A DNA stretch of 13,651 bases from a virus (taxonomy: Duplodnaviria; Heunggongvirae; Uroviricota; Caudoviricetes). The notes beneath the pieces are model-generated. The model was given only the letters and a program-made list of their open reading frames with translations, searched no databases and was not told the origin of the DNA. Shown piece by piece: positions 1 through 13,651 of this stretch. Position numbers and translations under genes: made by a program. The stretch lies in the IMG/VR virus record IMGVR_UViG_2654587685_000021. The stretch is one strand, 5' to 3'. Within the stretch, counting starts at the first letter, position 1; each line of letters opens with the position of its first letter.

Positions 1-366
1 ATGATTGATGTCTTAGGGCCGGAGAAACGCAGACGGCGTACCACACAGGAAAAGATCGCAATTGTTCAGCAGAGCTTTGAACCGGGGATGACGGTCTCCC
101 TCGTTGCCCGGCAACATGGTGTAGCAGCCAGCCAGTTATTTCTCTGGCGTAAGCAATACCAGGAAGGAAGTCTTACTGCTGTCGCCGCCGGAGAACAGGT
201 TGTTCCTGCCTCTGAACTTGCTGCCGCCATGAAGCAGATTAAAGAACTCCAGCGCCTGCTCGGCAAGAAAACGATGGAAAATGAACTCCTCAAAGAAGCC
301 GTTGAATATGGACGGGCAAAAAAGTGGATAGCGCACGCGCCCTTATTGCCCGGGGATGGGGAGTAA
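1..366 (+). CDS. insC: IS2 transposase OrfA (InsC), helix-turn-helix DNA-binding part
   Basis: 121-aa ORF ([40 protein letters not shown]...) recognised as IS2 InsC; ATG at 1. Confidence 0.85.
318..324 (+). promoter_or_regulatory. Programmed -1 ribosomal frameshift site A AAA AAG of IS2 (insC to insD)
   Basis: The heptamer AAAAAAG occupies 318-324 with AAA and AAG in the insC zero frame (..R A K K W..). The insD frame is exactly -1. This is the standard IS3-family arrangement. Confidence 0.7.
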
Positions 367-1229
367 GCTTAGTCAGCCGTTGTCTCCGGGTGTCGCGTGC
401 GCAGTTGCACGTCATTCTCAGACGAACCGATGACTGGATGGATGGCCGCCGCAGTCGTCACACTGATGATACGGATGTGCTTCTCCGTATACACCATGTT
501 ATCGGAGAGCTGCCCACGTATGGTTATCGTCGGGTATGGGCGCTGCTTCGCAGACAGGCAGAACTTGATGGTATGCCTGCGATCAATGCCAAACGTGTTT
601 ACCGGATCATGCGCCAGAATGCGCTGTTGCTTGAGCGAAAACCTGCTGTACCGCCATCGAAACGGGCACATACAGGCAGAGTGGCCGTGAAAGAAAGCAA
701 TCAGCGATGGTGCTCTGACGGGTTCGAGTTCTGCTGTGATAACGGAGAGAGACTGCGTGTCACGTTCGCGCTGGACTGCTGTGATCGTGAGGCACTGCAC
801 TGGGCGGTCACTACCGGCGGCTTCAACAGTGAAACAGTACAGGACGTCATGCTGGGAGCGGTGGAACGCCGCTTCGGCAACGATCTTCCGTCGTCTCCAG
901 TGGAGTGGCTGACGGATAATGGTTCATGCTACCGGGCTAATGAAACACGCCAGTTCGCCCGGATGTTGGGACTTGAACCGAAGAACACGGCGGTGCGGAG
1001 TCCGGAGAGTAACGGAATAGCAGAGAGCTTCGTGAAAACGATAAAGCGTGACTACATCAGTATCATGCCCAAACCAGACGGGTTAACGGCAGCAAAGAAC
1101 CTTGCAGAGGCGTTCGAGCATTATAACGAATGGCATCCGCATAGTGCGCTGGGTTATCGCTCGCCACGGGAATATCTGCGGCAGCAGGCTTGTAATGGGT
1201 TAAGTGATAACAGATGTCTGGAAATATAG
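324..1229 (+). CDS. insD: IS2 transposase OrfB (InsD), DDE catalytic domain; normally made as an InsCD fusion by -1 frameshifting
   Basis: 301-aa ORF in the -1 frame relative to insC, overlapping its 3' end; recognised as IS2 InsD. The listed start at 324 is a GTG; the functional product is expected to be the fusion. Confidence 0.85.
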
Positions 1230-1240
1230 GGGCAAATCCA

Positions 1241-1614
1241 AAGACCATCGGGGTAAAACGGTTTATGACGTGGCATCAGGGGACTCGTTATTTATTTCTG
1301 AACTCGGTCCATTACCGGAAAATGTTACCTGGTTGTCGCCGTATGGAGAGTATCAGAAGTGGAACGGCACATCCTGGGTGAAAGATGCAGAAGCAGAAAA
1401 ACTGTTTCGGATAAGGGAGGCGGAAGAAACAAAAAACAGCCTGATGCAGGTAGCCAGCGAGCATATTGCGCCACTTCAGGATGCCGTAGATTTGGATATT
1501 GCAACGGAGGAAGAGGCATCGTTACTGGCTGCATGGAAGACATACCGGGTATTGTTGAATCGTGTTAATACAGCGGTAGCAGCGGATGTTGAGTGGCCAG
1601 TCGCCCCACAATAA
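1241..1614 (+). pseudogene. Tail fibre assembly protein (Tfa / P2 gpG-like), 3' fragment; the 5' part is displaced by the IS2 insertion
   Basis: The translation after the IS2 end (..[64 protein letters not shown]...[13 protein letters not shown]...) matches the C-terminal two thirds of E. coli prophage Tfa proteins as I recall them. The listed ORF start at 1204 is inside IS2 and is an artefact. Confidence 0.75.
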
Positions 1615-1620
1615 AGAGAA

Positions 1621-1650
1621 AAAGCCATCGATTGAAATATAGATGGCTTT
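1621..1650. terminator. Stem-loop between the convergent tfa and acetyltransferase genes, possible bidirectional terminator
   Basis: AAAGCCATC (1621-1629) pairs with GATGGCTTT (1642-1650), a perfect 9-bp stem around a 12-nt loop with flanking A/T runs. It lies between the tfa stop (1612-1614) and the acetyltransferase stop (1658-1660). Confidence 0.4.
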
Positions 1651-1657
1651 ATGTACT

Positions 1658-2215
1658 CTATTTATACAATACAACACCGCTCTTTTTAGTTATATATGTG
1701 CAGTTCGATGGTATATCTTTATTTATAAAAGACATTGCACCTATTTTTACATTATCCCCAATTTTACGTGATAATCCAATGATGCAACAATTAGCTCCGA
1801 TATCAACGTTACTACCAATTTTTACTCTTGAACCAGGCATGTCACCATCTATCTGTCCAATGGTAGTATTCTGTCGTAACACCAGATTTTCACCAGCATC
1901 AACAGCAAAATGAACAACAATTCCAGCATGATGGGGAATTGTTAACCCTTTTCCAATATTTGCGCCCAATCCAATTTCACAACCAAATTTGTTAATTATT
2001 TTACTGTTTAACTTTTTGGCTGCTTTCTTATGTAATTTATTACCATTAATATACATTTCGTTAGCCAACCGCCACCAGAAAAGGAAATTCCGGTTACGCT
2101 GTTTTTTCTCTCTTAAAAGCCTCCAGATATCCATACGTTTCCGCCGAATTACTTCATATTTCCAGAAGTTTTTTAAATTAGTAGAGTCCCCAAATAAAAC
2201 AAAGTGAATTGCCAT
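1658..2215 (-). CDS. Hexapeptide-repeat acyltransferase, CysE/WcaB-like (serine or polysaccharide O-acetyltransferase family); AT-rich cargo gene
   Basis: The translation has the ...WWRLANEMYINGNKLHKKAAKKL... helix followed by a hexapeptide-repeat core (GCEIGLGANIGKGLTIPHHAGIVVHFAVDAGENLVLRQNTTIGQ...VKIGSNVDIGANCCIIG) like CysE and WcaB. The start is uncertain: ATG at 2215 or GTG at 2263 (the ORF-track start), neither with a good Shine-Dalgarno. The region is visibly AT-rich compared with the flanking tail genes. Confidence 0.65.
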   Translation of the reverse strand: MAIHFVLFGDSTNLKNFWKYEVIRRKRMDIWRLLREKKQRNRNFLFWWRLANEMYINGNKLHKKAAKKLNSKIINKFGCEIGLGANIGKGLTIPHHAGIVVHFAVDAGENLVLRQNTTIGQIDGDMPGSRVKIGSNVDIGANCCIIGLSRKIGDNVKIGAMSFINKDIPSNCTYITKKSGVVLYK

Positions 2216-2386
2216 TAAGTAAGACAGCACGATAATCTCCTTAATTATTATTTCAGACCACACATATTATAAGGTTAAGAGATTATAAAATCCTGTTGTT
2301 TGTTATTCAAAAACAATTTTCTGAGAAGGACATACAACAGCAAGTCGCCAGTCACCTTCATCAGGAAATTGGCGACATACGTTAAA

Positions 2387-2881
2387 TCAGAGCAGCCCCT
2401 TAACTGAGCTGGTCGCGCTATTAAGGGATGATGTCACCTTATCTTTGAAGCCGGACAACATATCGCTGAACGATGAGGATTGCAGGCGCTCCCGCAAATC
2501 CTCATCACAGCGTTCAAGAGTCAGTGAAAATTCTATCTTTTTCGCCTTACCGTAGCGATCAAACTCGGAGCGGGTCGTATTCGTTTCGGTCAGGACATAC
2601 ATGCCGTAAATCTGCCCGACGCCATCAATCAGAGGCCAGGGCCGTCCTGTATACGCCTGCGTGGTCAGCAGAGACAGCGACACTTCGCCACCTGTAATTT
2701 CAGGATAAAGCACACCAGAAAGAACGATGCGATCATCACCTGCACCGATATACTGCCAGCTTGCTGAACGGTTAACGCGTTCATTTTTCACATGCCGCCA
2801 GCTTTTGTTTTGCTGTAACTGCTGATGCGGCAGCGTGCGCAGCTCAAAAACAAACATGCCATAGATCATCATCATGGCCAT
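2387..2881 (-). CDS. U: Phage tail protein gpU (P2 U-like)
   Basis: 164-aa ORF directly after the tape-measure gene, in the position and size expected for gpU. The start probably lies among the MAMMM methionines: GAGGAG sits about 8 nt before the third Met at 2875. Confidence 0.75.
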   Translation of the reverse strand: MAMMMIYGMFVFELRTLPHQQLQQNKSWRHVKNERVNRSASWQYIGAGDDRIVLSGVLYPEITGGEVSLSLLTTQAYTGRPWPLIDGVGQIYGMYVLTETNTTRSEFDRYGKAKKIEFSLTLERCDEDLRERLQSSSFSDMLSGFKDKVTSSLNSATSSVKGLL

Positions 2882-2887
2882 GACTCC

Positions 2888-5704
2888 TCAATCTTTATCG
2901 TAAAAACTGCCACGCCCGGCACGGGCGCGCCGTTCCATTTCTGCCCTGACCATTTCACCGACCAGTTTCGCCAGTTCGCGGGGATTCTGCGTAACAACGT
3001 TATGCAGATGAACATGAATTTCACCGCCAAATCTGGAGACAGCAGGCTCCCGATTACGGGAAGCTGCAGGAACTGATGCCACTGGCGATCGTATGGCCTC
3101 CGCCACCGGGCGGGAGCTGGCCGCAACAACAGGGACCAGCGCCGGAGGCAGCGGAGCCGGGACTACGGGTGTGATATTAATTGCGGGGGCAGGCTTACTG
3201 ACCTGCGCAATCTTCCGCTCCTGCCACTCCCCACGAACAGCAAGTGCGCGGGGCAGGTTCTTAAAGACAATATCGCCAGGGCCAATGCGTTTTTTCGTCT
3301 CATCAACCAGCTTACCTGTGTTATCAGCAATTTTGCTGAGTCTGCGTAGCGTCCCGGTATTGCTGTCTGTGAGCGGTTTGTTGTCTTTGGGTTTATCACC
3401 TCCGGTGCCATTGCCATTTTCCACAGGCTTCGGCGGATTGATTTTCGCCAGGTCCCCCTGAAGTAAGGCAACCTTATCCTGAAGAATGGCCGCACGCTGT
3501 GCGTCTTCGATTTTCTTGCGCGCCCTTTCCGCTTCATCCGGAAGGACGCCAAGTTTTTCAAGTATCCACGCCAGCGTATCCAGTAGCATTTTTGCAGGTG
3601 TCAGAACAAGTTGTAACGCACCGCCAAGAACGTTACCGAATATCTCGCCAGCACTGGTACATTTATCCAGCGTTTCCTTGCTGGACTCCATCGGTGACAG
3701 CAGCGATTTAAACCAGTTAAACACCTGGCTGATCCCGCTTCCGATTGCGTCAAAAACAGGGCCAAACCGTTCAAAGGTTTCACGCAACGGGTTCAGCCTT
3801 TCCATAATCCCGCTGAACACCCCGGCAAAAAATGCCCTGATGGGATCCCAGTATTTCCAGATAAGGACGGCAGCTCCGGCAAGCGCAGCCACGATAAGAC
3901 CAACCGGACTGAACAGCGCCCCGATAGCGCCTCCCAGTAAAGAAACGGAACCCGTCACCATTCCCCATAGTGCTGGCAGGACCCTGACAGCATTCATTGA
4001 TCCGGTCAGGAGAGAAAAACCAAGACGCAGTTTTGCCAGCGGACCAGCAAGCACACCAATAGCCAGCGACAACGAGCCAACCGTTGCAGTCATTGCCAGC
4101 AACGCACCGCCTGCTATCAGTAGCTGGCGCGTCAGTGCCGGATGGGCCTGCGCCAGCGCCGTCACCCTTGATACCACCCGCGTGAGCCACTGCGTGACAG
4201 AACGCAGCGGACCGTCAATCAGATCTGCAATGCGGATGCGCAACCCTTCCCATGCACTGCCGAGTGATTTCAGATCGCCGTCAAGGTTGTTGGCCATAAC
4301 CTTTGCTGTGCGTTCAGCCTCACCGCGCGCGCCTTCAAGTTCTTTTCTCAGTTTGGGTAAGGAACCGTCACCCACTGCATCAACGAGCGCCATAAACGAT
4401 GTGAAAGCCTCTTCTCCGGCAATGTCCTTAAAGAACGATACCCGGTCAACTTCCCCGTATTTGCGGGTGGCTTTATAAAGGTCGGCCAGCACATCCTCCA
4501 TCGGGCGCATTTTACCCCCGGCATCCGAGACGGACACGCCCAGCTCTTTCAGAGCTTCTGCCGCCGCCTTTGGCGGTGATGCCAGACGAGCCAGGCTGGC
4601 ACGCATTGCCGTCCCGGCATCACTCCCTCTGATGCCCATATTCGCCAGCACACCAGCCATCGCTGCGGCCTGCTCCAGCGATATTCCCAGCTTACCCGCC
4701 ACCGGACCTGCATATTTCATGGTTTCGCCCAGTGCGCGAAGGTCAGTGTTGGTACGGGTAAACGCTGCGGTGAGTGTGTCACCGACCCGGTCCATCTGGT
4801 CAGCAGAAAGGCCGAACTGCGTCAGGATATTTGAGCCAATATCTGCCGTCTCGCCGAGATCCATACCGCCAGCCGTTGCCATGCTCAGCACTCCGGGAAG
4901 CGCAGCCTGAATGGCCTGCGGTGTGAAGCCTGCCATTGCAAGAAATGCCTGCCCACTGGCGGCATCGCCTGCGGTGAACTGCGTTTCAGAGCCAAGTTTT
5001 AACGCCTGCTCACGCAGCGCCTTAAACTGCGGGCTGTTCTGGTCGATTCGCGTCAGCGCCTGAACGCGGGACATCTCTTTGCCGAACCCGATCGCGGGCT
5101 GCAAAAAACGCCCGGCAGCATAGCCGCCCGCCGCTGCCGCACCAATTGCCAGCGCACCACCTGTTTTCAGTTTTCCCGCGGTTTCCTGCGCGCGCGAATA
5201 CCACTCACGCGCCCGCGTTACACGCGCAAGCGCCTGCCGTTCGCGTTCAAGCTGGTTGTTGTACTGTTCGGTGCGTCTGATGGCCTGCTGGATGGTGTTA
5301 TCGCTGCCTGTCAGGGAAATGCCGTGGCGTTTCAGCTCTCCGCCAAGCTCCCGCATTTTCTGAATTTCCCGTGTGCGCGATTCATTCAGGCGTTCAAGCC
5401 GGGTGCTTAACTGCTGCATCAGCTTTTGTTGTTTTTCGCTGAGCACTGTACCCGTGCGTTGTAACTGATTAAGGGCGTTAAGCTGGCGTCGTGCTTTCAC
5501 GATACCCGCATCCGCTTTACTGACAGCGTCGCGGGCGCGCTCAAATGAACGAGCCTGACGCTCGAGATTTTTAATCGCCCCCTGCGTTCGCTGGATGGAG
5601 TCACCAAACTGCCCCATCAGGCGGCGGGCGTTTTCGGCAGGCCGGGTCAGCCTGTCAACGGCGCTGAAAGCGACCCGGATATCAAGAGTCTTCATTGTCT
5701 GCAT
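2888..5704 (-). CDS. T: Phage tail tape measure protein gpT (P2 T-like)
   Basis: Very long ORF with a coiled-coil, Arg/Gln/Glu-rich N-terminal part, Gly/Ala-rich hydrophobic central segments and a Pro-rich C-terminus, sitting between E/E' and U. The ORF is open to 5731, but a start at MQTMKTLDIRVAF (5704 or 5695) fits the E' stop at 5682 better; the exact start is uncertain. Confidence 0.85.
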   Translation of the reverse strand: MQTMKTLDIRVAFSAVDRLTRPAENARRLMGQFGDSIQRTQGAIKNLERQARSFERARDAVSKADAGIVKARRQLNALNQLQRTGTVLSEKQQKLMQQLSTRLERLNESRTREIQKMRELGGELKRHGISLTGSDNTIQQAIRRTEQYNNQLERERQALARVTRAREWYSRAQETAGKLKTGGALAIGAAAAGGYAAGRFLQPAIGFGKEMSRVQALTRIDQNSPQFKALREQALKLGSETQFTAGDAASGQAFLAMAGFTPQAIQAALPGVLSMATAGGMDLGETADIGSNILTQFGLSADQMDRVGDTLTAAFTRTNTDLRALGETMKYAGPVAGKLGISLEQAAAMAGVLANMGIRGSDAGTAMRASLARLASPPKAAAEALKELGVSVSDAGGKMRPMEDVLADLYKATRKYGEVDRVSFFKDIAGEEAFTSFMALVDAVGDGSLPKLRKELEGARGEAERTAKVMANNLDGDLKSLGSAWEGLRIRIADLIDGPLRSVTQWLTRVVSRVTALAQAHPALTRQLLIAGGALLAMTATVGSLSLAIGVLAGPLAKLRLGFSLLTGSMNAVRVLPALWGMVTGSVSLLGGAIGALFSPVGLIVAALAGAAVLIWKYWDPIRAFFAGVFSGIMERLNPLRETFERFGPVFDAIGSGISQVFNWFKSLLSPMESSKETLDKCTSAGEIFGNVLGGALQLVLTPAKMLLDTLAWILEKLGVLPDEAERARKKIEDAQRAAILQDKVALLQGDLAKINPPKPVENGNGTGGDKPKDNKPLTDSNTGTLRRLSKIADNTGKLVDETKKRIGPGDIVFKNLPRALAVRGEWQERKIAQVSKPAPAINITPVVPAPLPPALVPVVAASSRPVAEAIRSPVASVPAASRNREPAVSRFGGEIHVHLHNVVTQNPRELAKLVGEMVRAEMERRARAGRGSFYDKD

Positions 5705-5900
5705 TCCCGCTGCGAAGTGCCGCCCGCTCACGCCAGCTAACCACTTCGCCGGGCGTCATCATGAAGATTTCGGCGGGCGACCAGTTAAAAATAACGGCAA
5801 TATCTGCCACAAAGTCTTCTATGTGCTCAAAGCACACAACCGTGATCAGGCTTCCGTCGCCTGTTCGTTCTTCCCGCCAGAGTCCGCACCGCTCAAAAAA
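5682..5900 (-). CDS. E': E' extension of the tail chaperone, made only as the gpE+E' fusion by -1 frameshifting
   Basis: The E' frame is -1 relative to E. It is closed upstream by TGA at 5933-5931 and open from the slip site to the stop at 5682-5684. It overlaps the 3' end of E, as in P2 E/E'. Confidence 0.7.
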   Translation of the reverse strand, partial: FFERCGLWREERTGDGSLITVVCFEHIEDFVADIAVIFNWSPAEIFMMTPGEVVSWRERAALRSGNADNEDS

Positions 5901-6211
5901 TTTACGGCAACCACACATAACTGAATAAAGTCACGGGATGCCATTTTTTTGATCGTCACTTCATCCAGTCGCGGTGATGTCACGCGTGACAGCAGCGTAA
6001 ACATGGATTCCGCTTTCAGATTCAGCACATCAGACAGCGACAAATCTCGCAGAGATCCAGCCTGCTCAATAGCCCCGGTGATCTCCACATACGTGATTTT
6101 TTCGCCGCCTCGCTCAATTGGTTGGGTAAGTTTTACACCACGCTCACTGGTTTCTTTCACAGTGTCAGCAACTACCGTGTTTTCGGTATCGATGTTTTTC
6201 GTCTCTTTCAT
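5846..6211 (-). CDS. E: Phage tail assembly chaperone gpE (P2 E-like)
   Basis: 121-aa acidic protein between the tube and tape-measure genes. AAGGAG lies 7 nt before the ATG at 6211. It contains the frameshift site near its 3' end. Confidence 0.8.
   Translation of the reverse strand: MKETKNIDTENTVVADTVKETSERGVKLTQPIERGGEKITYVEITGAIEQAGSLRDLSLSDVLNLKAESMFTLLSRVTSPRLDEVTIKKMASRDFIQLCVVAVNFLSGADSGGKNEQATEA
5894..5900 (-). promoter_or_regulatory. Programmed -1 frameshift slippery heptamer T TTT TTG (E to E+E')
   Basis: The minus strand reads AAT TTT TTG AGC in the E frame (..V N F L S..). The heptamer TTTTTTG is the slip sequence I recall for the P2 E/E' frameshift, and the -1 frame continues into the 5682..5918 ORF. 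Confidence 0.75.
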
Positions 6212-6265
6212 CAGGAAACTCCTTTCAGTCAGAGGCGACGCACTGCGCCGCCTGCATATTACTTA

Positions 6266-6778
6266 TCAGCCAAGCCCGAGCGCGGAACGGATGCGATCGG
6301 GCACAATGTCCTTGCCGTCCTTCCGGTAAATGAAGTTCAGCAGGTCAATCTCCCACAACGGGCGATCGTTAACACTCAGCTTGTAGTAGGTGTTTTTAAT
6401 GGCGTAAGTGTGTGATGTGGCTTCGCCCTGTTTGGCTTCCCCCATATCAATTTCCGTCACACGTCCGCGCATTTCGACTTCATACAGGTCGCTTTCTGCA
6501 TCGGTGTAATATTCACCCGCAAAACGCAGCAGCGTGCCGTCAATCGTGCCGCCATACTTAAGGAACAGCTCACGAACTGCGCCCCCCATGACAAAGCTCG
6601 CATCAAGCGCGGAGTCGTCCAGACCGAGATCAATACTTACCGCACCCATCATGCCACCACCCCGGTAGCTGTCGGTTTTGCGCGTCAGCTTAGGCAGAGT
6701 GACGGACGTCACCTTACCCACTTCGTTTTCACCATCCACAAACAGCGTAAAAAAGCGAAGATGTTTTGGTACAGCCAT
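6266..6778 (-). CDS. FII: Phage major tail tube protein (P2 FII-like)
   Basis: 170-aa ORF immediately after the sheath gene; its ATG overlaps the sheath stop (TGATG on the minus strand). Size and position match gpFII. Confidence 0.85.
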   Translation of the reverse strand: MAVPKHLRFFTLFVDGENEVGKVTSVTLPKLTRKTDSYRGGGMMGAVSIDLGLDDSALDASFVMGGAVRELFLKYGGTIDGTLLRFAGEYYTDAESDLYEVEMRGRVTEIDMGEAKQGEATSHTYAIKNTYYKLSVNDRPLWEIDLLNFIYRKDGKDIVPDRIRSALGLG

Positions 6779-7962
6779 CAGGCACCTCCCAGCACCGCAA
6801 ATGCGGGTTCAAAGTATTCATCAGTAAACGTCTGGTAAAGCTCCATGTCTTCCAGTGGCGGAACGGGCGTATATTTGTAGCGAATACGCACACGCCCCTG
6901 ACGTAAATCCGTGGTGCTGTTATCCACCACGTCATACCAGCACTCCGCGCCAATCAGTTTCCCGGCAGTAACCAGCGAATCCAGTTTTGCCCTGATGGCA
7001 CTGATAACATCCTTCACGTTCGCAGGCGTCAGTGGACTGTCGATGGTTTCAAACTGCGCTTCCGCAATTGAATCAGCCAGCACCTGTGCGGTTCGGGTAT
7101 ACACCTCAAAGATGTAGGCGTTCGTTTCCGGTGTGCGGTTGCCCCAGAAGCGGAACCCGTTGCGACGAATAATGGTCGTGATTTCTTTGTTGTTGAGGCT
7201 GTTGGCATCACTGTCTTCGGCCTGCAACGACCAGAAAACATGCCTGGACATCCCCAGCACATTTTTAACAGGAACGTTGGACAGCGATTTGTGCCAGCCC
7301 TGCTCATGGTCAATGTACGCACGAAGGCCGCACGCATAGGCAGGCGCGGGGAACGTTTCGTTTTTGCCACTTTTCGGGTTGTAGGCGATGAAGTCCGGCC
7401 ATAAGAGCATCACCTCACGTTCGTTGAATTTCTGGCGGTAGGTAATTGCCTCAGCCATCGTGTTACAGTCATGACATGAGGCATACACAAACGCGCGCAG
7501 TTTACCCGCAATCACGCACAGGGATTTTGTCACCGCCTCCGTGTCCAGCTCCGGCGCGGCCAGAATACGCGGACGGTATCCGATGCTTTCATCCTGCTCT
7601 GCAACAAGCAGCGCATACATCCCCGTATAGCTGCCGTCAGATTCAGAACCACCGATAACCAGTTGATCCTGCGTCTTACCGCCTTCTTCTTTGTGTTCAG
7701 CCACGCGAACGACGATCACTTTTGTGCTCACCTGGTCTGCAATAGCCTTAAGCGCACGATAAAGCGTCCCCGTAGTCCCGCATTTTCCCAGCACGTCATT
7801 GACGCGGGTCAGCAGTGTGGGCTTGTTCAGCGGGAACAGCTCCGCGTCCGCATCATCCGCCGTTGCCACGATACCGATAACACTGGAATCAACATCATTA
7901 ATCGCTGTTACCAGGTCGGTACTTTCCGTAACACGGGCACCATGAAAACGAGTTTCACTCAT
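6778..7962 (-). CDS. FI: Phage contractile tail sheath protein (P2 FI-like)
   Basis: 394-aa ORF with motifs I recall from P2 gpFI (..DADAE.FPLNKP.., LRAF.Y, WPDF, QGWHK.LSNV, RR.GFRFWGNRT, YTRTAQV, Y.YTPVPPLE). Confidence 0.9.
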   Translation of the reverse strand: MSETRFHGARVTESTDLVTAINDVDSSVIGIVATADDADAELFPLNKPTLLTRVNDVLGKCGTTGTLYRALKAIADQVSTKVIVVRVAEHKEEGGKTQDQLVIGGSESDGSYTGMYALLVAEQDESIGYRPRILAAPELDTEAVTKSLCVIAGKLRAFVYASCHDCNTMAEAITYRQKFNEREVMLLWPDFIAYNPKSGKNETFPAPAYACGLRAYIDHEQGWHKSLSNVPVKNVLGMSRHVFWSLQAEDSDANSLNNKEITTIIRRNGFRFWGNRTPETNAYIFEVYTRTAQVLADSIAEAQFETIDSPLTPANVKDVISAIRAKLDSLVTAGKLIGAECWYDVVDNSTTDLRQGRVRIRYKYTPVPPLEDMELYQTFTDEYFEPAFAVLGGA

Positions 7963-8119
7963 AGCTTCAGCCCCTTGTATCCGTTAAATGATTCGGCAAC
8001 AATCATCACCCACCACGCGCGTAATCTCACCCCTGCGCCGTTCTCCCGCCACGGCGACAACAAAAAGCAGTAACCCCCTATGCACGCACATGCGACCATG
8101 CCGCACAGGGAGGGAACAG

Positions 8120-9220
8120 ATGACCGATACCACCATGCAATTGCTCAGTCAGAGCACAGACCCCGTGAAAATGCCGGATTTTGATATTCTCGCGGAGGGG
8201 GAAACACTGTCCGGCGTGGCAGAGCGCCTGATGAGCCTGTCACTGACCGACAACCGGGGATTTGAAGCGGACCTGCTCACCATCACGCTGGATGATGCGG
8301 ATGGTCAGTTGCAGCTACCGCCACGGGGCGCGCGCCTGACGGTTCTCATTGGCTGGAAAGGAGAACCGCTGACAGAAAAAGGCACTTACATTGTTGATGA
8401 AATCGCTCACGAAGGACCGCCGGACAGGCTGACTGTTTCAGCCAGAAGCGCAGATTTTCGGGATGAATTTAACGTTAAACGTGAGGTGTCCTGGCATGAT
8501 GTGACCGTTGAGCGCGTGGTATCCGCCATCGCTCATCGGTACGGTCTGAAACCACAAATCAGCGAAATGCTGATGGATATTGAAATCGACCACGCCGACC
8601 AGACCGAAGAAAGCGACATGTCCTTCCTTACGCGCATGGCGGAAATGCTGGGCGCAATCACTACGGTAAAAAGCAGTAATCTGTTATTCATCATGCCAGG
8701 CGGTGGCGTGAACGCACAGGGCCAGCCGTTGCCATCGTTCGCCATCACGCGCAGCAGTGGCGATCGCCATCAGTTCCGCATTGCTGACCGCGAAGCGTAT
8801 ACGGGGGTACGTGCTTACTGGCTTGATCTTAATTACGGGAAAAAGAAAAAAGTCAGCGTGAAACGCCGCAAACCGAAAAAGGAGAAAAGCAGCAGCCGTG
8901 AAGGTGACTATATGGAAGGTGCGGAAGGCAACGTGTTTGTGTTACGCAAGACTTATCAGAACGAGCAGGCAGCAAGACGTGCAGCGGCGGCAAAGTGGCA
9001 GCAGCTACAACGCGGAGCCGCATCATTCTCCATCACGCTGGCGCGTGGACGCGCAGAACTCTATCCCGAAATGCATGGCACGGTGACAGGCTTCAAAAGT
9101 GACATCGATAATCAGGACTGGATTATTGCAAAAGCCGAGCACACCATTGATAACAGCGGCTTTACCACACAGCTTGAGCTTGAAGCAAAAATCCCGGAAT
9201 GGATAGCAGAAACAGAATGA
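8120..9220 (+). CDS. D: Phage tail protein D (P2 gpD / late control gene D family)
   Basis: The translation from MTDTTMQLL... has the gpD-type blocks (LTITLDDADGQLQLPPRGARLTVLIGWKG, SARSADFR, SFLTRMAE, a KKKKVSVKRRKPKKEK basic stretch, FSITLARGRAELYPE, SGFTTQLELE). GGGAGGG lies 6 nt before the ATG at 8120. The ORF-track start at 7988 is an upstream extension with no support. Confidence 0.85.
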   Translation: MTDTTMQLLSQSTDPVKMPDFDILAEGETLSGVAERLMSLSLTDNRGFEADLLTITLDDADGQLQLPPRGARLTVLIGWKGEPLTEKGTYIVDEIAHEGPPDRLTVSARSADFRDEFNVKREVSWHDVTVERVVSAIAHRYGLKPQISEMLMDIEIDHADQTEESDMSFLTRMAEMLGAITTVKSSNLLFIMPGGGVNAQGQPLPSFAITRSSGDRHQFRIADREAYTGVRAYWLDLNYGKKKKVSVKRRKPKKEKSSSREGDYMEGAEGNVFVLRKTYQNEQAARRAAAAKWQQLQRGAASFSITLARGRAELYPEMHGTVTGFKSDIDNQDWIIAKAEHTIDNSGFTTQLELEAKIPEWIAETE

Positions 9221-9619
9221 GCAAATTAGATGTATTGACTCAAACCAGAACTGACACACTCACAGCACAGTGCCAGACCCAATCTGGCAGCCCGCTTTGT
9301 GCCTAGAGCAGGTGTTGCTTATGTAACAGTTAATCCACGGATAGTGGTCATGAATGCTGGTTGAAGTTGTATTGCCATGAGTGGTCAATTAGGGACTCAC
9401 TTATTATCGCGTGCTCACCATTGATGGGTAAGATCATGCATTTCGGCTACTGTACTTCGCGAATCCTCCGCACACAGGCAACACCTGATTTAAGAACAGA
9501 GGGAGATGATGACGCAAGGAAGATTTATTATCGTGCATGTGGCAGATGATCTTTTAGCTGCCGGAGTGATAAATTACACCTATTTTCGATAAGTGTTTTT
9601 GTTATAGAACATTAATTTC

Positions 9620-10759
9620 GTGGGAAACAATAAAGTGAAATTAGGAAGAAATGATAAGTGCTGGTGTAATTCAGGACTTAAGTATAAAAAGTGCCATCTT
9701 GGTCGAGATCGTGAAACTCCGGTATCCAAAGCCGAGGCACTGAAATTTTCAAAGTCTCTCTCGCAGAGAAAGGCATGTTATGCGCCAGCATCCATGCACG
9801 AAGATTGTGATAAACGCATCGTTCAGGCGCATACGATATCTAAGAGCAGTAGCCTTAAGGCGATCGCCGACTCCAGCAATCACGTCATGGGGGTGATAAT
9901 GAACTTAGCAAGCCTGATGAGAAACAACGGAAAATGGCTTCCCGAGAAGATCGGTATCAATCAGGCATCCACTTTTACAGGATTTTGTGCAGTTCATGAC
10001 AGAATCTTATTTTCATGCCTAGAGAACGAAAAATTTACAGGCACGGACGAGCAGTGCTTTGCCTTAATGTTTCGTTCATTGTCTAAAGAAATTTATGCCA
10101 AAGAAGGGGGAGTGCTATCTTCTGATTTTGCTAAAAATGCCGATAAAGGAAAGCTACAAGTTGAACAGTATTATATTCAGAAATTAATCGACCAGCACCA
10201 AAGTGGCTTAAATGCAGCAATAATTGAATTAAATAATCTTAAAACTAGCCTCGACCGCATCCTACTTAGCAGGCAATTTTCAGAAATTGAAAGTGTTATC
10301 TTCACTTTTGCAGAGCCTTTACCAATTGTAGTTTCGTCAATTCTTTCACCGGAGAGGGATTTCGATGGGACCAAAATTCAGGATTTGAGCGATCTTACAG
10401 TGTCGGCGGAACAAGTATGTTTCAATGCTTTTTCCTGCGGAGGTAAGGGATATGTTGTGTTCAGTTGGCTGAGAACTTCAACAATTATCAGACGTTTTAT
10501 ACGGACACTAATTAAGATCCCAGCTAACAGGATGTTCAATACCCTTCTGTATTTTTTCTTCACAAAGGCCGAAAATACATATTCATCCCCTGAGTGGTGG
10601 GACAGGCTCAGTGATAAACAGCGAGAGAATATCGGCAACATGATTATGTCAGGGGTTGAATTTTTTGGCATACCTACATCACAGGTTGATCATTCCGTTG
10701 ATTATAACGCCGCTGCACTTGAAGAGATAACATGCAGCAACAACGAAATTTGCAGCTGA
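9620..10759 (+). CDS. Hypothetical 379-aa protein with an N-terminal SEC-C-type zinc-binding motif; AT-rich cargo gene between D and ogr (candidate anti-phage or accessory function)
   Basis: Residues 14-26, CWCNSGLKYKKCH, fit the SecA C-terminal SEC-C consensus (CxCxSGxKYKxC[H/C]). The rest has no domain I can name. The start is GTG at 9620; the frame opens at 9608 after TAG, and the first in-frame ATG would delete the motif. No clear Shine-Dalgarno. AT-rich relative to the tail genes. Confidence 0.7.
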   Translation: MGNNKVKLGRNDKCWCNSGLKYKKCHLGRDRETPVSKAEALKFSKSLSQRKACYAPASMHEDCDKRIVQAHTISKSSSLKAIADSSNHVMGVIMNLASLMRNNGKWLPEKIGINQASTFTGFCAVHDRILFSCLENEKFTGTDEQCFALMFRSLSKEIYAKEGGVLSSDFAKNADKGKLQVEQYYIQKLIDQHQSGLNAAIIELNNLKTSLDRILLSRQFSEIESVIFTFAEPLPIVVSSILSPERDFDGTKIQDLSDLTVSAEQVCFNAFSCGGKGYVVFSWLRTSTIIRRFIRTLIKIPANRMFNTLLYFFFTKAENTYSSPEWWDRLSDKQRENIGNMIMSGVEFFGIPTSQVDHSVDYNAAALEEITCSNNEICS

Positions 10760-11048
10760 ATGTTTACATGCTGTTAGAAAAAGCGGGCTGAACAATCATT
10801 TCGGGATTGTAACAGATAAGATGGCACTGCCCGCTTGCTTCCCGATATGCACCTCAGCCAATAAACTTATGTAAGCAACCGATTTCCATTTATGCGGAGG
10901 TTATCAAAGTTGTTGGAGTTGCGAACTTCCGCTCTTCGCACAAAGCGTACCGCTAGGTTTGATTGTATTCTGGCTGCGCAAACTGTCAGTTGGAGTCTGA
11001 GCTATTACAACTTAGAATAGCGGCAGCACCACGTTAAGGGAGGTCGCT

Positions 11049-11309
11049 ATGTTCCGTTGTCCGCTTTGTGGCGCATCTGCCCGAATCCGCACCAGTCGTC
11101 CGGAAAACGATTCAAACACTGTGCGGCAAAAGTATTACCAGTGTAACAACCTGGAATGCGGCGTATGCTTCTCAACACTGGAAGCTTTCCATAAATTCAC
11201 ATCAAAACACGCCTCCGGCGTTCACTCTTCGGAAGGTATCCCGTGGCATGAGCTGCCAGCTTCACACAGGGGAAACAATCAGATGAGTTTGCCTTTACCT
11301 CAGAATTAA
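11049..11309 (+). CDS. ogr: Ogr/Delta-family zinc-finger late transcription activator
   Basis: MFRCPLCGASARIRTSR....YYQCNNLECGVCF has the CxxC-(22)-CxxxxC arrangement and the N-terminal consensus I recall for P2 Ogr (MFHCPLC..A.ARTSR...YHQCQN..C). AGGGAGG lies 5 nt before the ATG. It sits at the prophage end as in P2. Confidence 0.85.
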   Translation: MFRCPLCGASARIRTSRPENDSNTVRQKYYQCNNLECGVCFSTLEAFHKFTSKHASGVHSSEGIPWHELPASHRGNNQMSLPLPQN

Positions 11310-11499
11310 CAGGCAGAATTGCCGGAGTAACAAAAAAACGATAGATTACCCGCGGGTGCCTTTCGGCTGATGGTCGGAGGAATACCCGAAGGCCGGATGT
11401 GGAAAGGCCCCGGAAAACATTTCTGTTTAACCGAGGCCCTAACATATCTACCTTAAGCAAGTGATAGGTTAGCGCCTCTCCAACAAAGGAGCAAGCGCT

Positions 11500-11640
11500 A
11501 TGTCGCAAAAATCGCTTACAGCCATCACGTTCTGCGTGACGGTAATCCTCATCATCTGGATGCTACACGGTTCGCTGTGTGAAATACGGATGAGCTTCTG
11601 GGGAGCGGAGTTTGCGGCGTTCTTACAGTGTAAGCAGTAA
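11500..11640 (+). CDS. Hok/Gef-family type I toxin (46 aa), absent from the ORF track
   Basis: ATG 11500 to TAA 11638-11640 encodes MSQKSLTAITFCVTVILIIWMLHGSLCEIRMSFWGAEFAAFLQCKQ: one N-terminal transmembrane helix followed by the Hok-family SLCE(I/L) motif and AAF(L/M). AAAGGA lies upstream; an in-frame TAG at 11470-11472 closes the frame. Confidence 0.7.
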   Translation: MSQKSLTAITFCVTVILIIWMLHGSLCEIRMSFWGAEFAAFLQCKQ

Positions 11641-11728
11641 GGAAACCGCGACGGGGGAGCAATCCCCCGTCAATCGGTTGCTAAGGTTGGCTGAAGTGGC
11701 ACCCTATCTCACAGACATGAACAACAAA

Positions 11729-11760
11729 CCCGCAGCGTAAGAACTGCGGGTTTTCTTTTT
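11729..11760 (+). terminator. Rho-independent terminator downstream of the hok-like gene
   Basis: CCCGCAG (11729-11735), an 8-nt loop, CTGCGGG (11744-11750), then TTTTCTTTTT. It is preceded by a second GC hairpin, GACGGGGGA-GCAA-TCCCCCGTC, which could be the 3' fold-back element of a hok-type mRNA. Confidence 0.6.
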
Positions 11761-11828
11761 GGAACAATCACTAGCTAGTGTACCGTTAACGGCACATAAT
11801 GCTCGCACAACAAACCTGTTAAAAGAGA

Positions 11829-12110
11829 TTACTCAGCATTCTCCTGCTTCCATTGCCGGATCATTTCATCGGTAACATCACCCTCATAACATACCACGTC
11901 ATACCCTCCATTACGGCTATATGCACTGCGTCCACCACATCTACTACCATTCCTTGCATGATTATAAGGACACGCACAATTGCCTGGATAAGATTCAATG
12001 GATTCTTTAATTATTTCTTTTTTGATCTGAGCATCAGACTTTCCTGTTGCTGCATATCCACTAAAAGATACTAAACAAAGGCAGATTGCCATTAATAAAC
12101 CACATCGCAT
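11829..12110 (-). CDS. Small secreted Cys-rich hypothetical protein (about 93 aa with signal peptide)
   Basis: The ORF is open to 12224, but the signal-peptide-like start MRCGLLMAICLCLVSFSGYAA|TGK begins at the ATG at 12110. The mature part has 6 Cys (..YPGNCACPYNHARNGSRCGGRSAY..VVCYEGD..). AT-rich. No family assignment from memory. Confidence 0.5.
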   Translation of the reverse strand: MRCGLLMAICLCLVSFSGYAATGKSDAQIKKEIIKESIESYPGNCACPYNHARNGSRCGGRSAYSRNGGYDVVCYEGDVTDEMIRQWKQENAE

Positions 12111-12412
12111 ACCGATACACTCTATTACTAACCAATCATAGCCCACATCATAAAATCGAGATGAGGAGTACAATACCTTTAACAAGAAGGTGTCATAACG
12201 ATAATATGTCGTGCAATTCATCAAAAAAAAGATCTATATCAAAGAGATAGAACTCTTATCAGCGCTTCAGACATCGGCATTCGAGGCAGCAGAAAAACAG
12301 TAAATCTGACGAATTTGCCTTTTCCCAAGATGTTGTCAGATTAAAAAGATAGATTAGCGCAGGTACCTGTTGGTGGATTGCAGGAGGAAAAATGAAGTCG
12401 AGTGAAAAAATC

Positions 12413-12474
12413 CCAGAAAAATTTTTGTTTAACAGAGGTCCTGGTTCACTATGCGAAATACGGAGGAGCTGCAG
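12413..12474 (+). pseudogene. hok-locus remnant: degenerate second copy with an internal deletion of about 127 bp
   Basis: 12413-12442 matches 11410-11440 (about 26 of 30) and 12443-12474 matches 11568-11600 inside hok (about 26 of 32), with the intervening hok start and transmembrane coding part missing. A 34-aa ORF at 12392-12496 with an AGGAGG upstream retains the GSLCEIR motif but has no transmembrane helix. Confidence 0.5.
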
Positions 12475-12580
12475 AAGAATTCTGCTTCATCCTTAGAGTT
12501 TAAACAGCACGTGCACTACCATTGTTTCTGCATATCGCCACACCATCGCCACTCTACCGCCATTGCACAAAATACAAATA

Positions 12581-12607
12581 CGAAAAAACCACCCGAAGGT
12601 GGTTTCA
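12581..12607 (-). terminator. Rho-independent terminator of the glyW-cysT-leuZ tRNA operon
   Basis: The minus strand reads AAACCACC-TTCG-GGTGGTTT followed by a T run, about 40 nt downstream of the leuZ 3' end. Confidence 0.7.
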
Positions 12608-12648
12608 CGACACTGCTTATTGCTTTGATTTTATTCTTATCTTTCCCA

Positions 12649-12735
12649 TGGTACCCGGAGCGGGACTTGAACCCGCACAGCGCGAACGCCGAGGGATTTT
12701 AAATCCCTTGTGTCTACCGATTCCACCATCCGGGC
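12649..12735 (-). tRNA. leuZ: tRNA-Leu (anticodon UAA)
   Basis: The reverse complement reads GCCCGGATGGTGGAATCGGTAGACACAAGGGATTTAAAATCCCTCGGCGTTCGCGCTGTGCGGGTTCAAGTCCCGCTCCGGGTACCA: 87 nt, long variable arm, encoded CCA end. Confidence 0.9.
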
Positions 12736-12747
12736 TCGGGAAGAAAG

Positions 12748-12821
12748 TGGAGGCGCGTTCCGGAGTCGAACCGGACTAGACGGATTTGCAATCCGCTACA
12801 TAACCGCTTTGTTAACGCGCC
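12748..12821 (-). tRNA. cysT: tRNA-Cys (anticodon GCA)
   Basis: The reverse complement reads GGCGCGTTAACAAAGCGGTTATGTAGCGGATTGCAAATCCGTCTAGTCCGGTTCGACTCCGGAACGCGCCTCCA: 74 nt, anticodon loop UUGCAAA. Confidence 0.9.
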
Positions 12822-12875
12822 AAATCCTTCAGGCCTTTCAGCCAGACATCCGCTTGAGGCCGATGTCTTTTAAAC

Positions 12876-12951
<76 letters not shown>

Positions 12952-13024
12952 ATTCATCAAGCAATCAGTTAATCACTTGATTTTATTATCGTCTGGCAAT
13001 CAGTGCCGCCGTTCGATGCGTTGC

Positions 13025-13052
13025 ATTCTACTTACCTGGCGCGATGAGTCAA
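13025..13052 (-). promoter_or_regulatory. Probable sigma70 promoter of the glyW-cysT-leuZ operon
   Basis: The minus strand has TTGACT (13052-13047), a 16-nt spacer and TAGAAT (13030-13025), followed by a GC-rich discriminator and preceded by an A/T-rich UP-like tract. It lies about 65 nt upstream of the glyW 5' end. Confidence 0.5.
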
Positions 13053-13102
13053 CGATATTTTTCACCACTTTTGATCGTTTGCTGAAAATTGCGCCGAAAC
13101 GA

Positions 13103-13651
13103 TCACTGATCAAGCAAATCTGCACGCGCAGCGCTCAAATATTGCAACATTGACCACAGAGTCAGTACCGCAGCCACAAAGAAAAGTGCAATACCGGCGT
13201 ACTCAACCCAAATGTTCGGACGCCACAGCAGCCATGCCAACGCCACCATCTGGGCAGTGGTTTTCACTTTCCCAATCCAGGAGACGGCCACGCTACTGCG
13301 TTTACCCAACTCCGCCATCCATTCGCGTAGCGCAGAAATAATAATTTCACGGGCGATCATCGTTGCCGCCGGTAATGTCACCCACCAGCTGTGATAATGC
13401 TCGGTTACCAGCACCATGGCGATAGCCACGAGAACTTTATCTGCCACAGGGTCAAGGAAAGCACCAAACCGGGTACTCTGGTTCCAGCGGCGTGCCAGAA
13501 AACCATCGAACCAGTCAGTCACCGCCGCGACGCAGAAAATGAGCGCGGCGGCAAACGGCGACCAGGTGACAGGCAGATAAAAGACCAATACAAAGAATGG
13601 GATAAGGATGACACGGAACAGTGTAAGCAACGTAGGGATATTAAATTGCAT
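13103..13651 (-). CDS. pgsA: CDP-diacylglycerol--glycerol-3-phosphate 3-phosphatidyltransferase (phosphatidylglycerophosphate synthase)
   Basis: 182-aa integral membrane protein with the CDP-alcohol phosphatidyltransferase motif (DWFDGFLAR...[10 protein letters not shown]), recognised as E. coli PgsA. The ATG is at the last three bases of the window. It lies upstream of the glyW-cysT-leuZ cluster, as in E. coli. Confidence 0.9.

Follow-up and report, generated by a model that had tools for sequence, protein, structure and literature searches.

Frameshifting in the genes for tail assembly chaperones is among the most conserved recoding events in tailed phages, and the E/E' frameshift of the P2-like phages has been known since 2002. 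The conservation of a tail-gene frameshift in dsDNA phages was reportedly set out by Xu, Hendrix and Duda in 2004. In P2, the cassette lies between the tube and tape measure genes of the FETUD tail operon, and its published products are an E of 91 aa and an E+E' of 142 aa (PMC3091744, citing Christie et al. 2002). Downstream structures are absent in the E+E' gene of P2 and likewise in Burkholderia P2-like phages (PMC3091744). Two other relatives are functional temperate phages: P88 is inducible and lytic (PMC5285337), and Citrobacter phage PhiSM (Xuanwuvirus) forms plaques and lysogenises K-12 (PMC6456863).

The corresponding products of phage lambda, gpG and gpGT, are made in a ratio of ~30:1; this ratio matters, tail assembly requires both products, neither is found in the virion, and both have been assigned chaperone roles (PMC5009743). 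In layout, the P2-type cassette resembles that of lambda, with a shared N-terminus, a rare -1 slip near the end of the upstream ORF, and major tail and tape measure genes as flanks. Lambda differs in having a G GGA AAG heptamer and a non-contractile tail, although this heptamer recurs in the Mannheimia P2-like phage of our comparison set. Lambda was absent from the matches of the database searches made here, and the likeness is one of organisation, not of aligned sequence.

Here, we describe the E/E' locus of a stretch of DNA of 13,651 nucleotides, IMG/VR virus record IMGVR_UViG_2654587685_000021 (hereafter ‘the window’). Judged from its sequence, the segment is very probably the tail assembly chaperone recoding site of a P88-like (Xuanwuvirus, Peduoviridae) Escherichia coli prophage, at which translating ribosomes would slip. 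A P2-type E/E' frameshift is an already known, textbook feature and is ordinary in this setting, and the locus carries little weight for biology at large. What is new is so in detail only, namely an overlapping second heptamer with its comparative pattern and a systematic mis-annotation of E'; the practical points are this mis-annotation and the series of motifs in two registers that the relatives provide.

Gene order, reading frames and slip site

The features of the locus are listed in Table 1. E and E' are overlapping ORFs between the tube (FII) and tape measure (T) genes, all on the minus strand, which is the placement of the P2 cassette. The ATG of E at 6211 is preceded by a strong Shine-Dalgarno sequence (AAGGAG), and its stop codon is TGA 5848..5846. 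At the other end of the cassette, the ATG of T at 5695 lies inside the end of E', giving an overlap of 14 nt.

Table 1. Coordinates of the E/E' cassette and the surrounding tail genes in the window.
Feature	Coordinates	Strand	Basis and details
Tail sheath gene FI	6778..7962	minus	PF04984, PF22671, PF17482; first gene of the FI-FII-E-T-U block
Tail tube gene FII	6266..6778	minus	PF04985, E = 7.5e-47; directly upstream of E
Gene E, short tail assembly chaperone	6211..5846	minus	ORF and translation, standard translation; 121 aa
Second canonical heptamer, A AAT TTT	5903..5897	minus	In-phase scan; P-site Asn AAU, A-site Phe UUU
Slippery heptamer T TTT TTG, P2-type	5900..5894	minus	E zero frame; P-site Phe UUU, A-site Leu UUG
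E' extension	5894..5682	minus	70 codons in the -1 frame after the slip, ending at TGA 5684..5682
Tape measure gene T	2888..5695	minus	935 aa; PF10145, E = 3.6e-58
Tail gene U	2387..2881	minus	PF06995, E = 5.5e-39; last gene of the FI-FII-E-T-U block

By scripted recomputation, the sole TTTTTTG of E is at base 312 of the ORF (0-based 311; 311 mod 3 = 2). The first T of this heptamer is the third base of the codon AAT, and the zero frame of E reads AAT TTT TTG, the X XXY YYZ arrangement. A first-pass annotation of the window, made from the sequence alone, had placed the stop of E at 5846, the slip at 5900-5894 and the end of E' at 5682; all of these coordinates are correct on recomputation. The same annotation had asked for the phase of TTTTTTG in the zero frame of E to be computed anew, and this is confirmed as T TTT TTG. 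It had also allowed that the E' frame might be interrupted, and that frame is instead open from the slip through all 70 codons to its TGA. The conceptual E+E' fusion, obtained by script with the frames recomputed, is 176 aa long; P2 run through the same script yielded a 91-aa E and a 142-aa E+E', matching the published sizes.

As in P2, the motif is T TTT TTG in the same phase on homologous Phe-Leu codons, with E' in the -1 frame overlapping the start of T. The products are longer than those of P2 (121 vs 91 aa for E, 176 vs 142 aa for E+E'), with 10 extra residues after the slip, and the FI-U block is inverted relative to gene D in this lineage, in contrast to P2. Frames, homology to P2 gpE+E' and full-length tail genes agree in identifying an intact P2-type E/E' frameshift cassette, as had been proposed at first pass.

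An in-phase heptamer on its own is little evidence. TTTTTTG is found 10 times in the window vs 4.7 expected, and the window's genes (3,616 codons) contain 13 in-phase X XXY YYZ heptamers vs ~14 expected; a further in-phase TTTTTTG is located within T at 5108. What is above chance is the combination of a position near the 3' end of E (the slip site is 15-16 codons ahead of the E stop), a long -1 extension that carries PF06528, and a conserved homologous codon. Because the heptamer is not in excess of chance, the evidence rests on configuration, homology and conservation.

The same configuration occurs at two sites of the window only, E/E' (an extension of 70-71 codons) and insC of the insertion sequence IS2 (301 codons). 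The latter is the -1 frameshift site of IS2 orfA/orfB, with the heptamer A AAA AAG at 318..324 in phase 2 of insC, which is alike in configuration and differs in function, as it serves a transposase fusion. In E. coli, the A AAA AAG heptamer of IS2 is one of the class that shifts most efficiently (PMC4066793).

Homology of the two frames and conservation among relatives

Profile searches assign both frames to known families. E matches phrog_103 (‘tail protein’) with E = 3e-35, and the whole Pfam profile PF10109 (Phage_TAC_7) aligns to E residues 26-106 with 17.2 bits, under the cut-off of 25; the end of this match, residue 106, is the slip codon. The E' part contains Pfam PF06528 (Phage_P2_GpE) at fusion residues 135-170, with 45.3 bits against a cut-off of 23. 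Fusion residues 103-174 match phrog_1756, which places the onset of -1-frame similarity at the slip codon and not at GTG 5837, the start codon used in current annotations of E'. In a BLASTP comparison, the E+E' fusion is collinear with P2 gpE+E' across the slip site (31% identity, E = 9e-26), with VNFL of the fusion opposite VGFL of P2 at the junction. NCBIfam contains no model matching E or the fusion, and a search for solved structures related by sequence found none.

For a wider comparison, the E regions of 15 further annotated Peduoviridae from at least 12 genera and of P88 were fetched, and 17 sequences were aligned. An in-phase X XXY YYZ heptamer is present near the end of E in all 17 annotated Peduoviridae, the first base of the aligned motif is at codon position 3 of the E frame in every case (17/17), and the -1 frame is open in all of them (17/17) from just ahead of the motif as far as the start of T, or almost as far. 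The motif is T TTT TTG at the homologous codon in P2, Wphi, 186, SEN5, KSP20, RSA1, Milagro and others, and the frameshift is explicitly annotated in the records of Wphi, 186 and Milagro. Every sequence in the protein alignment has Phe at the slip codon, and the base before this codon is T in 17/17 though the encoded residue differs (N, G, P, D, T or S). Over the stretch that is open in both frames, amino-acid identity between pairs averages 0.60 for the -1 frame vs 0.40 for the zero frame, and the -1 frame includes a conserved block, LW.EER.GDG. In many of the 17, the heptamer closely follows a -1-frame stop. This stop is situated 0-12 nt upstream of the heptamer in P2, 186, SEN5 and KSP20; in these four phages, therefore, E' cannot start on its own.

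Motif and register vary among relatives (T6G, T6A/C/T, AAATTTT, CCCTTTC/T and, in the Mannheimia phage, GGGAAAG). A canonical in-phase heptamer lies within the overlap in 77 of the 80 closest IMG/VR viral contigs. TTTTTTG alone is the most common state (26 contigs), followed by CCCTTTC alone (15), AAATTTT alone (12), AAATTTT together with TTTTTTG, which is the type of the window (11), CCCTTTT together with TTTTTTG (8), TTTTTTA (4) and TTTTTTC (1). The remaining three contigs have no heptamer; they contain extra indels or differences in T-run length and are probably sequence-quality problems, not counter-examples.

Two overlapping heptamers

The window reads GTA AAT TTT TTG at the slip site, and two canonical heptamers one codon apart, A AAT TTT and T TTT TTG, form the decamer A_AAT_TTT_TTG (5903..5894). 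The upstream member was overlooked at first pass. P88, which shares the gene order of the window and is 97% identical to it in nucleotide sequence over the tail block, has the identical decamer. P2, unlike the window, cannot have an upstream heptamer, as it reads C GGT TTT instead of A AAT TTT. The difference is in the opposite direction in PhiSM and in a large class of E. coli prophages, which have AAATTTTATG and the upstream heptamer only. This allele, in which A AAT TTT is the sole heptamer, was found in PhiSM and in 3/3 sampled E. coli prophages, drawn from the class at 80-90% identity (548 records). In both the AAATTTTATG and the CCCTTTCTTG sub-lineages, T TTT TTG has been lost and a canonical X XXT TTY is kept one codon upstream, and 27/80 of the viral-contig relatives have only a heptamer in the upstream register, the P2 heptamer being absent.

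Both heptamers have been assayed in E. coli reporters. UUUUUUG yielded 0.118% frameshifting with no stimulator, 0.247% with the IS911 stimulators and 0.765% with the IS3 pseudoknot, and the corresponding values for AAAUUUU were 0.070%, 0.355% and 11.4% (PMC4066793). Without a stimulator, both are close to the reporter background of 0.055%; with one, A_AAU_UUU exceeds U_UUU_UUG ~15-fold (11.4% vs 0.77%), and the rule derived there is that an A-site UUY shifts better than UUG (PMC4066793).

Given the 27 relatives with the upstream register only and the A-site UUY rule, either heptamer, or both, may serve as the slip site in the window. We suggest tentatively, and with somewhat less than even confidence, that the working site may be the upstream A AAT TTT rather than the textbook P2 heptamer, or that the decamer may offer two consecutive chances to slip. 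If this is true, the invariant of the cassette would be the Phe codon, in either the A site or the P site, with the slip register drifting by one codon in evolution. The relatives constitute a natural series (T6G only, both heptamers, upstream heptamer only) in which the contribution of each heptamer could be followed in a setting that has no RNA stimulator.

Sequence context of the slip site

Like P2, the locus is without a downstream RNA structure. The 101 nt from the slip site fold with z = -1.69, no better than shuffled sequences, and single-sequence folding places no hairpin 5-9 nt past the site; the nearest clean hairpin, 5839..5818, is ~55 nt off and too far away. RNAalifold on 12 diverse relatives returned 0 conserved pairs, and Rfam at its gathering threshold matched nothing at the slip site. 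A search of the 10-14 nt before the site found no Shine-Dalgarno-like stimulator in the window and nothing conserved across the alignment. With both heptamers near background when unaided, a useful level of E+E' may need context features beyond those found.

State of the prophage

The window corresponds to base 92 onward of draft contig JHRA01000021.1 (GCA_001265255.1). IS elements are the usual break points in short-read assemblies, and this contig begins at IS2 base 1, so the left edge of the window is an assembly break at a repeat and not the end of a remnant. The right end of IS2 (1240) abuts approximately codon 68 of the tail-fibre assembly gene (tfa), of which a residual ORF (1204..1614) keeps the whole Caudo_TAP domain. 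This insertion is the only visible lesion. The IS2/tfa junction was found in 0/5,426 complete E. coli genomes, nor was it found in contigs sampled at one genome per species. A simple insertion of IS2 into a complete prophage would place ...GTTGAAGAC beside the left end of IS2.

To the right of IS2, the window (1241..13651, 12.4 kb) is 99.9% identical to E. coli SCU-105, from which it differs by 10 SNPs and 0 indels; the prophage part (~11.4 kb) accounts for three of the SNPs and the chromosomal flank (~1 kb) for the other seven. The SCU-105 prophage is complete, with genes for scaffold, capsid, terminase, head completion, holin, endolysin, Rz/Rz1, baseplate (V-W-J-I), fibre and tfa. In the window, each of the nine phage genes has its full length. 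A check of the tail genes for premature stops had been recommended in the first-pass annotation; all of them, T included, are full length, with lengths equal to those in P88 and SCU-105. Genes U-T-E'-E-FII-FI lie on one strand and D on the other, in the same order as in P88 and SCU-105. At the place of the acetyltransferase-like gene of this prophage, P88 has a DNA invertase together with alternative fibre genes; it is also without the SEC-C/YecA gene that is present here between D and ogr. A scan for the P2 late-promoter dyad TGT-N12-ACA returned matches at chance level only and none in the FI/D intergenic region.

These results bear on the description of the prophage as degraded and rearranged, which had been proposed at first pass and which we do not retain. 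The window contains no truncation (IS2 in tfa apart), frameshift, deletion or raised divergence of the kind that marks a degraded prophage: its phage genes are full length, the prophage part has 3 SNPs and 0 indels relative to SCU-105, and a single IS2 lesion is present. The gene order that had been read as rearrangement is native both to the inducible phage P88 and to the SCU-105 prophage. Of the further proposal that the tail block has been under selection or was acquired recently, the second half is favoured by near-identity to the prophages of many strains; conservation of the slip site says nothing on selection in this host. The picture is consistent with recent acquisition of a prophage that is essentially intact apart from one IS2 hit. 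For the tailocin-like remnant also suggested at first pass, nothing positive was found, and the full set of head, lysis, baseplate and fibre genes in SCU-105 argues against a tailocin lineage.

Proposed mechanism and alternatives

We infer that the ribosomes translating E would part at the decamer. The majority would start at ATG 6211, terminate at 5848..5846 and release the 121-aa chaperone. A small fraction would move back by one base on A_AAT_TTT_TTG, while tRNA-Asn and tRNA-Phe occupy AAU UUU or, after one further codon, while tRNA-Phe and tRNA-Leu occupy UUU UUG. These ribosomes would continue in the -1 frame to TGA 5684..5682, producing a 176-aa E+E' of ~19.5 kDa. The products of the two slip positions would differ at one junction residue, Phe or Leu (...NFFER and ...QLCVVAVNFLER, respectively). 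Slipping would proceed without an RNA-structure stimulator, as reported for P2. If the roles follow those of lambda gpG/gpGT and P2 gpE/gpE+E', the N-terminal part common to both products would coat the tape measure protein T and the E' part would recruit the tube protein, and tail assembly would be expected to need a fixed low ratio of long to short product. As in lambda, both products would then be needed for the tail and absent from the virion.

Two alternatives would explain the overlapping frames without ribosomal slippage. It is highly unlikely that E' is a separate small protein, either of 51 aa from GTG 5837 or of 78 aa from ATG 5918. The 51-aa form is the one currently annotated, with a stand-alone CDS at 5682..5837 called by PGAP in SCU-105 (‘GpE family phage tail protein’, 51 aa) and an equivalent E' CDS in all of the E. 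coli genomes that were listed or sampled, and ATG 5918 is indeed present in the -1 frame in the ORF list; however, neither start is preceded by a Shine-Dalgarno sequence, and neither is conserved outside the close lineage, ATG 5918 being replaced by GTG in PhiSM-type alleles and by CTG in Kp4847-1. The -1-frame homology, moreover, extends upstream of GTG 5837 to the slip site (phrog_1756 and the LW.EER.GDG block), the -1 frame of P2, 186, SEN5 and KSP20 opens only 0-12 nt before the heptamer, and a fusion product is described in the records of Wphi, 186 and Milagro and, for P2, in PMC3091744. Also highly unlikely, and to our minds the least probable of the alternatives, is transcriptional slippage, in which RNA polymerase would add an extra U on the T6 run. 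A T6 run is short for efficient polymerase slippage, and the cassette is kept in relatives that have only T4 (AAATTTTATG) or T3 (CCCTTTCTTG) and yet retain an in-phase canonical ribosomal heptamer; the polymerase would be indifferent to the phase of the motif, yet this phase is kept in every relative. In favour of polymerase slippage, the site is homopolymeric, its run length differs in close viral contigs (T6 in L050, T7 in L033, T8 in L051) and is thus unstable at least in sequencing or replication, and genes avoid U7 and A7 runs, for which slippage is a possible reason (PMC4066793).

A third alternative accepts the recoding site and denies its use: the cassette would be a dead relic in a decaying prophage or a tailocin-like remnant, intact for want of time and unexpressed or unused. 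We regard this as unlikely, though less so than the preceding two. IS2 interrupts tfa, so this copy may not make infectious particles, and the absence of the IS2/tfa junction from the 5,426 complete genomes can be read in the same direction; but a single IS insertion is a recent event and not decay, and nine full-length phage genes, 3 SNPs and 0 indels over ~11.4 kb relative to a complete prophage, and a gene order native to P88 all speak against a relic. A tailocin, for its part, needs the head genes to be absent, whereas the contig of the window ends in IS2 and the SCU-105 counterpart has them. Ribosomal frameshifting at a tail assembly chaperone cassette of an essentially intact prophage is the reading that we prefer.

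Prevalence and annotation

The E/E' locus is present in 1,374 of the 5,426 complete E. coli genomes (approximately a quarter), with 682 records at >=99% identity. The frameshift is unannotated in the GenBank/RefSeq records of P88, PhiSM and related prophages, and E' is entered as a free-standing 51-aa ‘GpE family’ gene in every sampled RefSeq/GenBank record of the lineage. With the locus this frequent and E' annotated in this manner, the 176-aa product is systematically missing from protein databases.

Annotation and targeting of E'

The 176-aa product of frameshifting from E into E' (E+E') is annotated in no sampled record of the P88-like lineage. Instead, E' is called as a stand-alone coding sequence of 51 aa beginning at an internal GTG, both by RefSeq/PGAP and in the majority of GenBank entries for phages of the lineage; the same coding sequence is annotated in P88 itself and in the related sequences L001 and L019–L022. 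A search for Rfam families at the frameshift site found none.

Among the relatives compared, three closely related IMG/VR viral contigs (L050, L033, and L051) differ from each other solely in the length of the T run at the slip site (at about position 943), the runs being cccT6gac, cccT7gac, and cccT8gac. The T7 run joins E and E' in a single continuous frame, so that no frameshift would be necessary. This variation may represent either homopolymer sequencing error or genuine instability in the length of the run.

The E' extension also contains a perfect match (5728..5759, minus strand) to a 32-nt spacer from the type I-E CRISPR array of Escherichia coli GmM066 (NZ_CM183652.1). The protospacer is preceded in the window by ATG, which is a permissive type I-E PAM. 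Thus, the most conserved part of E' is the target of a natural type I-E spacer.

Features of the window discussed in this section
Feature	Coordinates	Strand	Remarks
IS2	1..1240		interrupts the tail-fibre assembly gene (tfa) near codon 68
insC	1..366	+	upstream ORF of the IS2 frameshift pair
IS2 A AAA AAG motif	318..324	+	phase 2 of insC
insD	324..1229	+	entered by -1 extension from insC
Residual tfa ORF	1204..1614	+	GTG start within IS2 right end
Rfam IS009 match	1379..1577	+	192 bits (gathering score 117); inside tfa
Acetyltransferase-like gene	1658..2263	-	hexapeptide-repeat; RefSeq: serine O-acetyltransferase; between tfa and U
Free-standing E' CDS as annotated	5682..5837	-	51 aa; 'GpE family phage tail protein'
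Hairpin aggcggcgcagtgcgtcgcct	6225..6245	-	GC-rich, imperfect, without T tail; FII-E intergenic region
SEC-C protein gene	9620..10759	+	379 aa; N-terminal SEC-C motif; RefSeq: YecA family; between D and ogr
hok	11500..11640		

Other elements in and around the tail genes

In phage 186, a partial terminator (tI) is annotated at the position equivalent to that of the FII-E hairpin. A partial terminator-like element in this gap would reduce expression of E, T (tape measure), and U relative to that of the sheath and tube genes.

The Caudo_TAP domain is still complete in the ORF that remains of the IS2-interrupted tfa (E = 4.6e-40), so that this copy could still yield a truncated Tfa. The IS2/tfa junction was found in none of 5,426 complete E. 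coli genomes.

The A AAA AAG motif of IS2 is a second programmed -1 frameshift site in the window. From this motif, 13 codons remain to the insC stop and the -1 extension into insD spans 301 codons; the 409-aa transposase in the gene call of the source assembly is insC and insD fused.

Putative cargo genes and spread of the prophage

The acetyltransferase-like gene has the appearance of cargo (a moron) and may serve to modify surface polysaccharides. In P88 its place is taken by a DNA invertase together with alternative fibre and tfa genes that form an invertible set. The SEC-C/YecA gene is a second putative cargo gene; it is absent from P88, and the alignment of the window to P88 breaks there. 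Near hok, no hok/sok RNA family reached the Rfam threshold.

Comparison with E. coli SCU-105, which carries a complete near-identical prophage, shows 3 SNPs across the roughly 11.4 kb of prophage in the window (1241..12600) and 7 in the adjoining chromosomal kilobase (12600..13651), where tRNA genes and pgsA lie. The two strains are more alike in the prophage than in the chromosome, which suggests that the prophage has recently spread horizontally.
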